DNA of 64,000 bases from Escherichia coli (GCF_003334405.1 NZ_QOWM01000002.1), one strand, 5' to 3'; positions 25,030-29,080 are shown, counted from the first letter of the stretch. The notes: a model not told the origin generated them from the sequence alone. Numbers and translations: made by a program.

Positions 25030-25135
25030 GCAGTTCGTCAGAGTGCGTATTCCGCTCTTTTCGATCACGGATTGGCCGTTATGACCCGATCTCGATGGAA
25101 GTTATTGGGTGATCCCCTTCCATGAAAATATGCAC
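25030..25135 (-). mobile_element. Short IS66-family 3'-end remnant
   Basis: Minus-strand peptide 'FHGRGSPNNFHRDRVITANP*' matches the remnant at 28934-28980; 'gtaagc' IR-like motif nearby. Confidence 0.35.
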
Positions 25136-25439
25136 CGAAGCTCCCGCAGAGGTTTCCGTGGGCGAAGGCATGATTCTGTCCGAGAGCCGGATGTGTTAGA
25201 AGCGCATGTCCGCTTCGATGAGCGGGGTGTGGAAACAGGATTTATGGTCAGGACAGTAAGGCACCGCCAATCGAAAGAGGCGGCAACAGATATGCCTGAC
25301 CTGTAAAATTACCGCGCCACATCTTGACTCTACCCGTTTTCCAAGCGCCCCCCCTTATAGAACGTACACTGGATGGTGATACCGGCTATACATCGCATAT
25401 TTGACAGTCAGCTTGCTGAATTTTTCATTGGCTGCAGCA

Positions 25440-26015
25440 TCAGGGCGTTTTCCAGATGACAGCTATAGTAAAAATGATCGCCAGACCGGCGAGAAAGCAG
25501 AGCGAAAGCGGGATTTTGTCCTTCAGTGTCAGGTTCAGCTCTTCTTCAACCCATGCTTTTTCAAATTCACAGTAAAATTTATAATGTGCGTACCAGTTAC
25601 TTCCGAAGATCTGTTTGCTGATGACCGTGCCGTAAAACCGGGACATGATAGCGTCGATGGATTGTTGTGTACGCTGATAGTCAAAGTTTGCATCGCTTTT
25701 TACGTTGCGGTAGATGACTTCAAGTTCATTAAAAATTTTGGTCTGCTCAATCCCCGCACTTTCATAACTCTGCTTTTCCGAGTCATAAAACTGAATGTAC
25801 ATTGTAGCAACACCAAATATAATTAATATCGCGGAAATGACGTTTGTGGCCAGCTCAGGAATAAAAAGGGCGAACACACCGACAGCAAGAGAAATAAAGC
25901 TAATCCAACCGGATGCCTTACAAATCAGATCATAGGTGGCAAAGTTTTTCTTAGCGCCAAATCCAACGTTATAACCATGTCGGGCGATTAATTTCAGCAT
26001 CTCTGATTGCGTCAT
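25440..26015 (-). CDS. Small multi-pass membrane protein, candidate effector
   Basis: 191 aa; hydrophobic helices 'WISFISLAVGVFALFIPELATNVISAILIIFGVATMYIQF' and 'IPLSLCFLAGLAIIFTIAVIW'; 7 nt after upstream stop. Confidence 0.55.
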   Translation of the reverse strand: MTQSEMLKLIARHGYNVGFGAKKNFATYDLICKASGWISFISLAVGVFALFIPELATNVISAILIIFGVATMYIQFYDSEKQSYESAGIEQTKIFNELEVIYRNVKSDANFDYQRTQQSIDAIMSRFYGTVISKQIFGSNWYAHYKFYCEFEKAWVEEELNLTLKDKIPLSLCFLAGLAIIFTIAVIWKTP

Positions 26016-26022
26016 AAAAACC

Positions 26023-27351
26023 TCAGCTTATGGGAACTTCAATCTGGGCCCGGGCAACCACAACCTCATTTTTTATCACATAGCATTCTACCATGTGATC
26101 TCCGCGGAAGTCGGTAGTTTCTTTCTTCGTACAGTAGCCGCCGTCCGAAACGATTTGTCCCCGGATCATATTTCTTCTGCGTGCTTCGTCACCCACGTTC
26201 AGTACCTTCCACATAACGGTGTAGGGTTCCTCTGCCTCCATTTCTGTCAAGTCTGCCCGGAAAAGGAGAGATTTTCGAGCGGAGAGGCGGAATCTTCTGG
26301 TAAGCATCTCCCTCAGGCTTCTGGGAGGGAAACCATCCTGGGTTACGGTACAGTCAAGGTTGAGTGAGTACCTGATATCCACCGGATATTTATCCTCTAT
26401 AAACTCTTCGGTATCGGTCCAGGGAACAGCATCTGCCGCATGCGATTCCAGACCAAGACGGGCTTCCATAATACCCACTTTACGTCTGGGGAAGGCTCGT
26501 CCGAACACTTTGCGCCAGCGGTCATTTTCACTGGCAGCCCCCTCAGCGTCTAAGGCATCACAACATAATTCATACGCGTGTTTCGCTGCCCGGCCAAACC
26601 AGGGAGATTTAACACGTACATGCTGATTACTGCCTAACGCGAGATACCTTTCCTTTCTCTCCTCATTTGACAGATATTCAAAAAAGTCTCTGGCGAGGGC
26701 TCCCAGGCTGCCATTTCCGGTATTGTCATAATCTGATGTTGATGAAAGAAAGCGATACGCTAGTGTGTCTATCAGTAAGCCACCCATATTGACGCCATGC
26801 AGGTTCTTCCAGGCTCTGATCATTTTACACAGCTTGCGCAGATTATTGGATTTATCTCGCGAAAATGCGGTCATGGCCGCCTTTTCGTGAAGAGGTTTTG
26901 TAATGCGCCATGCTCCTCCATTATAGCTTTCAGGGAATTTAAAGCTGTCATCATCCTGTCTGAATACAGGTTGAACCTCGACATAAAAGTTTTTAAAGAT
27001 GATCTGAACAACCAGTCTGTCCTTTTTCACAGTCTGGTCAGGATATTCTTCCGCCAGAATGTTTCTGACATCTGTAAGCAATGCAGACTGACCATTATCC
27101 TTACGGTTATAATATTCATACTGATTGGGGGGCATAATATAAAGCATATCCAAATCGGATATGCCTTTTATTGCGGTATGTCTGCCTACTGACCCCACTT
27201 TCAAGCGGTTTGCTACCCGGGAACTCGTTCCTCTGAACGCAAGATTTAATGACTTGGTTATTTTTCGATAGTGATAGCTGATCTTTTTTGCCTGTTTGAG
27301 GTCAAGATTCAAATTTTCAAGAAATTCGCTGAACAATTCCCTGTGGCTCAT
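26023..27351 (-). CDS. Pol-beta-superfamily nucleotidyltransferase, CD-NTase/SMODS-like candidate
   Basis: 442 aa; 'GSVGRHTAIKGISDLD' matches hG[GS]x(9-13)DxD; AAGGAA Shine-Dalgarno before ATG. Confidence 0.6.
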   Translation of the reverse strand: MSHRELFSEFLENLNLDLKQAKKISYHYRKITKSLNLAFRGTSSRVANRLKVGSVGRHTAIKGISDLDMLYIMPPNQYEYYNRKDNGQSALLTDVRNILAEEYPDQTVKKDRLVVQIIFKNFYVEVQPVFRQDDDSFKFPESYNGGAWRITKPLHEKAAMTAFSRDKSNNLRKLCKMIRAWKNLHGVNMGGLLIDTLAYRFLSSTSDYDNTGNGSLGALARDFFEYLSNEERKERYLALGSNQHVRVKSPWFGRAAKHAYELCCDALDAEGAASENDRWRKVFGRAFPRRKVGIMEARLGLESHAADAVPWTDTEEFIEDKYPVDIRYSLNLDCTVTQDGFPPRSLREMLTRRFRLSARKSLLFRADLTEMEAEEPYTVMWKVLNVGDEARRRNMIRGQIVSDGGYCTKKETTDFRGDHMVECYVIKNEVVVARAQIEVPIS

Positions 27352-27485
27352 GGTGTTTCCTTTGGCATGTGAAACATTAGCTTACATTATCATTACACCT
27401 TATAAAAACCAAGATCTTGGGAGGTGAGCGTTCTGCATGGCTTTATGACTTAAACGTAAGCGTTAACGGAGTGCCGTATTGACGC

Positions 27486-28007
27486 TTATTTATTGGTGAG
27501 TACTACGTTCCATGGCAGGAGTTCGTCAACTCGGTTGGAAGGCCATTCCGGCAGTACGCTCAGGATATGGCGCAGATACGCTTCCGGATCGATACCGTTC
27601 AGTCGGCAGGTGCCGATCAGCCCGTACAACAGTGCTCCTCGCTCGCCGCCGTGATCGCTGCCGAAGAACATAAAGTTTTTCTTTCCGAGACAGACTGCAC
27701 GAAGCGCTCTTTCCGCGGCATTATTATCCGCCTCCGCCAGACCATCATCACAGAAGTTGCACAACGCAACCCAGTGCTTCCGGATATACCGGAACGCATC
27801 TCTCAGACGGCATTTTTTCGATAATGTGTGTTCTTTCTCCTGCATCAGCTTATACAGGGAAGTCAGTAGCGGTTTACTCTGCATTTGCCTGACCGCCAGG
27901 CGTTCAGACACCGGCAACCCGCGTATTTCGGTAACCGGCTCATTTAAACCGTCTGGTGTGTTTCCTCCGGCTCCACAAAAATAATGTCCATCATTTTTAA
28001 TGGACAC
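27486..28007 (-). mobile_element. IS66-family transposase TnpC, C-terminal fragment
   Basis: 173-aa ORF with 'AERALRAVCLGKKNFMFFGSDHGGERGALLYGLIGTCRLNGIDPEAYL'; 'gtaagcgttaacgg' IR-like just beyond stop. Confidence 0.7.
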
Positions 28008-28011
28008 TATC

Positions 28012-28319
28012 GTATGGAATACCGGACCTGGATCACTGAAGCTTTACGTCTTCACTTTGAAGAACATTTACCACGGATTGTGGCCGGACGTCGCCTGGGC
28101 GTACCAAAATCAACAGTTTGTGGTATGTTCGTGCGCTTCCGAAAAGCTGGCCTTTCATGGCCTCTGCCCGCAGGTATGTCGGAGCGGGAACTTGATGCCC
28201 GTCTTTACGGGAGTGCCTCCACAGTACCTGTCGTACTTACTGAAAACACCGTTATGTCCGAAGTCCCGGTGGTAAAAAAACGCCCCCGGCGGCCTAATGC
28301 CAGTCAGTTAAGCAACTGA
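28012..28319 (+). mobile_element. IS21-family IstA-like transposase, N-terminal HTH fragment
   Basis: 'RRLGVPKSTVCGMFVRFRKAGLSWPLPAGMSERELDARLYG' resembles IstA N-terminus; truncated. Confidence 0.45.
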
Positions 28320-28667
28320 CTGGCTCTTTTTCGGGGCTGTGGGGTATTTCCAGGGCCTCTCCTTTACCACTCTCGGGAAGGCCCTTTCCCTTATTGTCGG
28401 TAATTTCACAAGTTGTCCCATACTTGCAAGATCGCGCATCAGCTCCGGTATATGTCCCGGTGAAGCGCCCTGCAATGTCATCAGCATTCTCATCACCATT
28501 CCGCATGATTCTGAGAAACTCAGTTGATTCGGCCAGTAACCTTTCAGATGTTCCGCCATTTTAATCATCTGATATCTCACCAGATTATAAGCCAGTAAGA
28601 CACCCCACAGCTCTTGCTCCACAAGCTCCGGCTTTTTACTTCTCAGCGTCAGCCTGCTCAGTTGCAT
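28308..28667 (-). mobile_element. IS4-family transposase, C-terminal fragment
   Basis: 'ELVEQELWGVLLAYNLVRYQMIKMAEHL' resembles IS4-family C-termini; no N-terminal catalytic part. Confidence 0.5.
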
Positions 28668-28731
28668 CGTCTGTTTTATCTCCCTGTATCCCAGTTCGAT
28701 TGTAAGCGGCTCGCCAGAACCGTATTGATAT

Positions 28732-28917
28732 TTACTGAGAGGTCAGATCAACTTTCCAGGGCAACAGATCGCGTACCCGGTTTGCCGACCAGTCCTGCAT
28801 ATGATCTGTGACGTAATGCAGCAATTTTTCTGACTCCGCATTGTTCAGACGGCAGGTGCCGATCAGTGAGCACAATATGTGCTGCATATTTGCCGCCGCT
28901 GTCGGAACCTGCAGCAT
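28732..28917 (-). mobile_element. IS66-family transposase TnpC, second C-terminal fragment
   Basis: 'LIGTCRLNN...LLPW' tail; 'tgtaagcggctcgcc' IR-like motif downstream. Confidence 0.65.
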
Positions 28918-29080
28918 ATTACAGGTTATTACTCGATCCCGATGGATGATATTGGGGGATTTCTTTCCATGAAAATACGTAAGAGTCGGGAGTAATTTGT
29001 CTTACCATCAATCTTCTTCATCACGCCCAAAGAAAAATAGTCATTCAAAGTACCCCGGGCATTTTGCCCGGGGATTATTA

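Follow-up and report, generated by a model that had tools for sequence, protein, structure and literature searches.

In insertion sequences (ISs) of the IS66 family, passenger genes located downstream of the transposase gene have been documented: in the tIS66 configuration, described for ISPa75 with fosZ, the passenger is located inside the terminal repeat of the element (PMC12888890). Operons of the CdnF-SLATT6 type in Escherichia coli, on the other side, are known to restrict diverse phages (bioRxiv 10.1101/2023.05.21.541620). Here we describe positions 25,030-29,080 of a 64,000-nucleotide (nt) stretch of E. coli chromosomal DNA (GCF_003334405.1, NZ_QOWM01000002.1; the whole stretch is referred to as the window), in which an intact operon of a known type, a type I cyclic oligonucleotide-based anti-phage signalling system (CBASS), lies amid the broken parts of at least seven mobile elements. 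An original prediction, made from the sequence, had seen here three IS66 tails in the same orientation around a nucleotidyltransferase (NTase)/membrane gene pair, and had offered two explanations, IS66-associated cargo capture or repeated insertion and decay at one hotspot. Our analysis supports the latter. The region is very probably a junk zone at the integrase end of a tRNA-Phe (pheV/pheU) defence island in E. coli, and we consider it about 85% probable that nested insertions, followed by deletion, explain this zone. As a whole, it is a mosaic of familiar mobile-element fragments round a familiar type of defence operon, ordinary and already known.

Insertion-sequence remnants between the CBASS operon and the integrase

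Between the cyclase gene of the operon and the integrase gene lie, in this order, the IS66 remnants X and Y, an IS4 end and a further IS66 remnant, Z (Table 1). X shares 95.6% DNA identity with ISEc43 and 86% with ISEc23/IS682, and it is recognized by the NCBIfam model transpos_IS66 (E 1.7e-38). Z is 87-90% identical to right ends of the ISCro1 family, and tblastn aligned it to residues 476-523 of the ISCro1 TnpC with 77% identity. The TnpC-tail open reading frames (ORFs) were confirmed at 27486-28007 and 28732-28917, and a tblastn search of the whole 64 kb with two intact IS66 TnpC proteins returned only 27489-27932 (E 2e-75) and 28735-28878 (E 2e-19). In the first of these ORFs, TnpC comprises residues ~27-173 only, and its first ~26 codons traverse the end of another IS66 element in reverse. 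The motif GTAAGCG, which had been predicted to follow each TnpC tail in the manner of an inverted repeat, is present at 27456 and 28702, in both cases 30 nt past the tnpC stop codon. An intact ISCro1, bounded by the 8-bp duplication TGTCATTC, shows equal spacing from stop codon to element end and an equal terminal repeat; the published IS66 repeats read GTAAGCGTCCGG and GTAACCGTCCGG (PMC12888890). Two of the three predicted same-orientation IS66 tails, 27456-27929 and 28702-28912, accordingly stand. The remaining one, 25030-25132 (the first remnant of the prediction), does not stand as a TnpC tail: within 25000-25440 there was neither a tblastn match nor a TnpC-like frame, and it comes down to a 17-nt repeat-like vestige (see below).

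Two pieces had been absent from the original prediction, an IS66 head on the opposite strand (Y, 27931-28297) and the IS4 end (28295-28701). Y shares 90.5% identity with the left end of an intact ISCro1 (L011); other copies reach as much as 97.6%, and the NCBIfam model IS66_access_TnpA matches Y with E 5.8e-29. The IS4 piece is 99.3% identical to the K-12 IS4 (insG) over 407 nt and matches the C-terminus of NCBIfam transpos_IS4_1. Beyond the end of Z, 12 unassigned nt lead to an IS21-family left end (28925-28981). The stretch 27984-28319 was also considered as the N-terminus of an IS21 IstA; this assignment was rejected, as NCBIfam and DNA alignments identify IS66 TnpA together with an IS66 left repeat.

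With the IS66 family (ISEc43, ISCro1, ISEc23/IS682), the remnants share the start of the repeat (GTAAGCG/GTAACCG), a tnpC ending 30 nt from the end of the element and a tnpA following the left repeat. Unlike the intact copies in L011 and L018, which show an 8-bp target duplication, the window holds fragments of 474, 367 and 211 nt and the 17-nt vestige. X and Z each possess a single end, without a full tnpA-tnpB-tnpC set and without an 8-bp target duplication. Because none of the IS66 fragments has all three genes or both ends, they are not mobile. As the motifs in question are short (7 nt in the case of GTAAGCG, 17 residues in that of a peptide discussed below), they might be chance similarities without common origin; however, in alignments of 57-475 nt every piece is 83-99% identical to annotated intact elements (E-values down to 0), which leaves chance a next to negligible probability.

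The junctions between the pieces point to the way in which the zone was built. X|Y, Y|IS4 and IS4|Z each have an intact terminus (GTAACCGG..., TAATGCC... and GTAAGCGG..., respectively) on one side and the interior of an older element on the other. As this is the signature of an insertion, we assign the three inner junctions to insertion events, and Z|IS21 is the sole interior-to-interior join. In the proposed history, an ISEc43-like IS66 (X) would have inserted 104 nt upstream of the cyclase start codon, followed by an ISCro1-like IS66 (Y) in the tnpC of X, an IS4 in the tnpA of Y, and a second ISCro1-like IS66 (Z) in the IS4. A single deletion, running from inside Z to the IS21-family end by the integrase, would then have taken all distal halves. 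We infer this order of events, and the single large deletion, from the pieces and junctions described. Directly shown are what each piece is and where it is bounded, a plasmid copy of the operon free of IS66, and the constancy of the block (see below). The row of tails ending in GTAAGCG would have arisen because only the CBASS-proximal end of each element was left; such a row is the expected residue of nested insertions cut by one deletion and does not speak for a capture mechanism. Lacking both a transposase and a partner end, the remnants are now all inert.

Other strains show further insertions within the same 1.5 kb. Strain CP101981.1 has an added intact IS66 of ~2.5 kb (ISEc23/IS682-like) within the IS4 remnant, accompanied by the 8-bp duplication AACCTTTC; one other strain carries an IS110-family element in X at ~27670; and CFT073 and NT1F25 differ in their IS content to the right of 27673 (IS3, IS30 and IS110 debris). 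Together with the nested junctions, these insertions fit well with repeated insertion and decay at one hotspot, as the original prediction had suggested. The added IS66 of CP101981.1 (positions 8523-11058 of the reverse complement of L018, corresponding to 28538-28545 of the window) is oriented like X and Z.

Table 1 Features of the junk zone and its neighbourhood, with positions counted from the first letter of the window
Feature	Position	Strand	Description or basis
Qat anti-phage system, four genes, complete	20328-24887		Directly upstream of the CBASS operon
IS66-family right terminal-repeat vestige, 17 nt	25026-25042	+	GTAAGCAGTTCGTCAGA; probable assignment; same orientation as the repeats at 27456 and 28702
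IS21 ends-only element, 91 nt, resembling a miniature inverted-repeat transposable element	25044-25134	-	ISSso4-like right end 25044-25076 and ISEc12-like left end 25078-25134
Group II intron 3' fragment with ~16 nt of the usual 3' exon	25135-25350	+	End of ltrA, then putative domains V (25184-25216) and VI; intron end ~25334
CBASS effector, SLATT_6 two-transmembrane protein, 191 aa	25440-26015	-	Intact
CBASS cGAS/DncV-like NTase (CD-NTase, oligonucleotide cyclase), 442 aa	26023-27351	-	Intact; C-terminal AGS-C domain
IS66 remnant X, ISEc43-like	27456-27929	-	Right terminal repeat GTAAGCGTTAACGG... and ~147 C-terminal tnpC codons
IS66 remnant Y, ISCro1-like	27931-28297	+	Left terminal repeat GTAACCGGCTCATTTAAACCGT... 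and N-terminal part of tnpA; sits in tnpC of X
IS4 right end	28295-28701	-	Terminal repeat TAATGCC... and C-terminal part of the transposase; sits in tnpA of Y
IS66 remnant Z, ISCro1-like	28702-28912	-	Right terminal repeat GTAAGCGGCTCGCCAGAACCGTATTG and last ~60 tnpC codons, frameshifted; abuts the broken IS4
Second ISEc12-like left end, alone	28925-28981	-	Outer end toward the integrase flank
P4-type tyrosine integrase	29081-30343	-	ORF; RefSeq annotation of the 100% identical locus L001
tRNA-Phe, island attachment site	30541-30616	-	ARAGORN; Rfam tRNA, 68.3 bits

The shared repeat and the left flank of the operon

Near-identical peptides had been reported from the minus strand at 25086-25132 and 28934-28980. 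They read as stated (...FHGRGSPNNFHRDRVIT and ...FHGKKSPNIIHRDRVIT), and the DNA beneath them is a direct repeat, 25078-25130 and 28925-28977, which is 83% identical over 53 nt. In a sensitive search with 25000-25440, the segment 25078-25134 recurred at ~91% identity in thousands of sites, within unrelated disrupted genes. At one of these sites (L002), it corresponds with 91% identity to the terminal 57 nt of ISEc12, an annotated member of the IS21 family, and lies upstream of istA; the ends of this element are set by the 5-bp target duplication AATGC (TGCGTATT...AATACGCA). For the adjoining 25041-25076, the counterpart is the right end of ISSso4 (L004; 97% identity), also of the IS21 family, with ends set by the 6-bp duplication ACTGAG. 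Because the adjoining parts match an ISSso4 right end and an ISEc12 left end, 25044-25134 is best read as a 91-nt ends-only IS21 derivative, with the termini TGCG...TGCA. The second copy (28925-28981) shows 83% identity to the left end of ISEc12 and 82-89% to other copies, and from ~28985 onwards homology is with the integrase flank of an unrelated pheV island.

Like ISEc12 and ISSso4, the IS21 pieces possess TGCG...(T/C)GCA termini and internal repeated motifs resembling binding sites, the identity to annotated ends is 91-97% (83% in the second copy), and the placement of the left end relative to istA corresponds to that in ISEc12. In contrast to the family, no istA or istB ORF was found between or beside either IS21 end; one copy fuses the right and left ends of two subtypes, and the other is a lone left end. 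Judged from these alignments, the shared peptide is a translation artefact of an IS21 left end, which is non-coding in the parent elements. The peptide had been taken as a sign of IS66 kinship between the first and the third remnant; this kinship is lost, as the sequence is that of an IS21 left end (91% and 83% identity to ISEc12). Short in-frame peptide repeats can thus be the non-coding ends of a different IS family. Ends-only IS21 elements of ~90 nt, in each of which an ISSso4-like end is joined to an ISEc12-like left end, recur in intergenic DNA upstream of DUF932 genes in CP4-like islands of E. coli (L009 ~2990-3060, L010 ~2990-3075), and on plasmid p948 of enterotoxigenic E. coli (L003 2082-2111 and 3501-3551) the ISSso4-like/ISEc12-like junction is split by an IS3 element. 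These other copies (L009, L010, L003) show no clear target duplications and seem to be unannotated.

The 91-nt element adjoins the 17-nt vestige GTAAGCAGTTCGTCAGA, which shares 14 of its 17 positions with the right terminal repeat of ISCro1 and has 3 mismatches to the repeat at 28702. Within the 64-kb window, three repeat-like matches with up to 3 mismatches compare with 0.19 expected by chance. The vestige is therefore probably an IS66 repeat that hosts the insertion of the IS21 mini-element. Among metagenome contigs, no IS66 right repeat was found in which the exact 17-nt vestige is followed by NNCGTATT. Another IS66-repeat-like match, at 37503-37519, was dismissed as chance (TnpC absent nearby by tblastn).

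On the other side of the mini-element lies the group II intron fragment, which was identified through DNA similarity and not through Rfam. Over 216 nt, the fragment shares 95.8% identity with an annotated intron on the Buttiauxella plasmid pBTX_57, namely with the final 37 nt of its ltrA and the sequence downstream, and from 25135 to ~25334 it is 75-80% identical to introns of Bradyrhizobium, Burkholderia and many other proteobacteria. A focused scan with the Rfam model Intron_gpII remained at 17.3 bits (E 0.37), short of the gathering score (40), with a domain V-like hairpin at 25184-25216; the Rfam scan of 24000-31500 returned nothing but tRNA-Phe. The fragment lies downstream of the SLATT gene, where the RefSeq annotation of the identical locus is blank. 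On this left side, a group II intron would have landed downstream of the SLATT gene, the IS21 mini-element would have inserted in the IS66-like vestige, and a deletion starting from the outer end of the mini-element would have taken the 5' part of the intron.

The two IS21 ends also allow for a different reading, namely that 25044-28981 (3.9 kb with intron fragment, CBASS operon and IS debris) was once an IS21-type composite, now decayed, that was moved in trans by an IS21-family transposase. The termini TGCGTATT... at 25044 and ...AATACGTA at 28981 have the correct inverted orientation for one element, AGAG abuts both ends (25040-25043 and 28982-28985), and hybrid ISSso4-like/ISEc12-like ends are seen again in other mini-elements. 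However, the flank match is of 4 bp only and was spotted post hoc, whereas the related intact elements duplicate 5 and 6 bp; the other mini-element copies lack duplications, and the two left-end copies are only 83% alike. An artificial empty-site query across 25043|28986 (...CGTCAGAG|TCGGGAGTAAT...) gave no contiguous match in our comparison set of 5,426 E. coli genomes, the gapped junction pattern gave nothing in metagenome contigs, and CFT073 and NT1F25 possess the CBASS block without the right-hand IS21 end. We therefore regard a composite as improbable. If true, ends-only IS21 derivatives would be a vehicle that carries defence operons into tRNA islands.

Some observations weigh against nested insertion followed by deletion. 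In no genome were the nested elements found complete. Z, with 87-90% identity to ISCro1, must nevertheless postdate an IS4 piece that is 99.3% identical to its K-12 counterpart, and would therefore have to be a distinct IS66 member without a close intact copy in the E. coli set. The AGAG common to the flanks of 25044 and 28981 has to be taken as coincidence, and the assignment of the vestige to IS66 is based on 14 matches in 17 positions.

The CBASS operon and its proposed capture by IS66

The NTase and membrane genes, judged by their domain content, form a type I CBASS operon of two genes. The cyclase is matched over its full length by the PADLOC model Cyclase PDLC00796 (E 9.4e-177); Pfam places SMODS at residues 1-161 (1.3e-39) and AGS_C at residues 313-442 (7.2e-45), the G-S...DLD active-site motif is seen in the translation, and NCBIfam CBASS_cyclase_b scores 100 bits, under its equivalog cut-off of 200. 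The effector gene, starting 7 nt downstream of the cyclase gene, is matched by PADLOC 2TM Effector PDLC00695 (E 1.8e-82) and by NCBIfam SLATT_6 NF033630 with 223.8 bits (cut-off 100). No Cap2/Cap3 or HORMA/TRIP13 genes were found beside the pair, whose neighbours are IS and intron fragments only. We liken it to the CdnF-SLATT6 operons (bioRxiv 10.1101/2023.05.21.541620) by architecture alone: a SMODS cyclase with AGS-C, followed by a SLATT_6 effector, without Cap2/Cap3 or HORMA/TRIP13. By analogy with other type I CBASS, phage would be predicted to trigger cyclic-nucleotide synthesis, which would in turn call upon the membrane-disrupting effector.

The original prediction had placed this pair between the first two IS66 remnants. 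This is accurate in so far as the vestige and X flank the operon, the first remnant being IS66-like over 17 nt only. Could IS66 then have captured the operon? For this to be the case, an IS66 would have skipped the right repeat at 27456 and used that at 25026 instead, so that CBASS became a passenger between tnpC and an outer repeat, as in tIS66. Both right repeats indeed point the same way, and the CBASS genes between them are co-directional with tnpC. The likeness to tIS66 (ISPa75-fosZ, PMC12888890) thus consists in a module that lies downstream of tnpC, reads in its direction and is followed by another IS66-like right repeat. Unlike in tIS66, however, a complete right repeat precedes the module, so that the operon lies outside the terminal repeat of the adjoining IS66 X. 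The outer repeat is of another subtype (ISCro1-type with 14/17 matches, not the ISEc43-type of X) and interrupted, and there is no independent occurrence of such a unit, nor an IS66 left end or a target duplication for it. Furthermore, because the IS21 mini-element and the truncated intron intervene between vestige and operon, the adjacency of the two is secondary.

The distribution of the operon argues in the same direction. On plasmid pVE-V10-F_3, a 96.7% identical operon is situated between HEPN genes and dqlB with no IS66 nearby. The homology to this plasmid extends from 25351 to 27455 and is lost exactly where the repeat of X begins, which is why we conclude that X inserted beside an already existing operon. 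Among the E. coli genomes, the CBASS segment was present in 258, the left junction in 247 and the junction to qatD in 250, and CFT073 matches 20048-27673 at 99.8%. The chromosomal copies are one fixed Qat-CBASS haplotype in ~250 genomes; they keep identical DNA across 25026 into qatD, so that 25026 is never a boundary of mobility, and no boundary at this position was found in any independent context in the E. coli genomes searched. In other species, 80 homologous loci were sampled (47-76% protein identity); an IS66 TnpC within 6 kb was found at 1/80 and 79 were without IS66. A SLATT homologue was detected by tblastn (E <= 1e-5) at 51 of the 80; at the 15 of these for which coordinates were inspected, it begins ~10-15 nt past the cyclase. 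The single locus with IS66, from a metagenome-assembled genome of the Myxococcaceae (L083), has a C-terminal TnpC fragment just upstream of the cyclase of a distant homologue and could be cited in favour of capture. This fragment (4892-5131) shares the strand of the cyclase and precedes it by ~0.9 kb; the proximity is probably a coincidence. With the operon outside the IS66 repeat, an IS66-free plasmid copy, invariant junctions and one IS66-associated locus in 80, capture of the CBASS operon by IS66 is not supported, and we hold it to be very improbable.

Between the cyclase start codon and the outer end of X lie 104 nt (27352-27455). As the plasmid copy has exactly these 104 nt, the promoter of the operon would be located either within 27352-27455 or in the IS end. 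The minus strand showed no convincing sigma-70 match, and a promoter/terminator scan yielded 6 promoter-like sites against 6.9 expected, that is, no excess. The IS66 end, 104 nt upstream of the cyclase start, could affect the expression of the operon.

The tRNA-Phe island and its neighbouring genes

As in other tRNA-Phe islands with a P4-type integrase, the island lies between tRNA-Phe/yqgA/speC and its cargo, with a tRNA-adjacent integrase and an IS-rich mosaic. The CBASS block is also present in CFT073, and the present island is a defence-gene variant (Qat and CBASS) that is otherwise unremarkable. In the strain of the window, the site is pheV, with yqgA and speC as neighbours. The same island, integrase and junk zone included, is found in some other strains next to cutA-dsbD (L012, L019), that is, at the pheU copy of tRNA-Phe. 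The 4.2 kb from 24890 to 29080 are 100% identical in several complete genomes, and 50 of the 5,426 genomes match them with more than 80% coverage.

Beyond correct annotation, the significance of these findings is slight. By-products are a base-accurate map of the junk zone for a widespread Qat-CBASS haplotype (~250 complete genomes, including CFT073), as well as the group II intron fragment and the 91-nt IS21 ends-only element, both of which were previously unannotated.

The Qat system next to the operon encodes a KAP-family NTPase (594 aa), QatB (250 aa), a QueC-like QatC (439 aa) and a TatD-like QatD (241 aa); in E. coli, this allele of Qat is nearly always accompanied by the CBASS operon and vice versa (~250 genomes). 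Upstream of Qat, at ~17000-20300, the annotation of L001 lists pseudogene fragments of a type VI secretion system (ImpA N-terminal domain, VasL domain) and a hypothetical gene of 1.4 kb; these suggest that decay of the island extends to this side as well.

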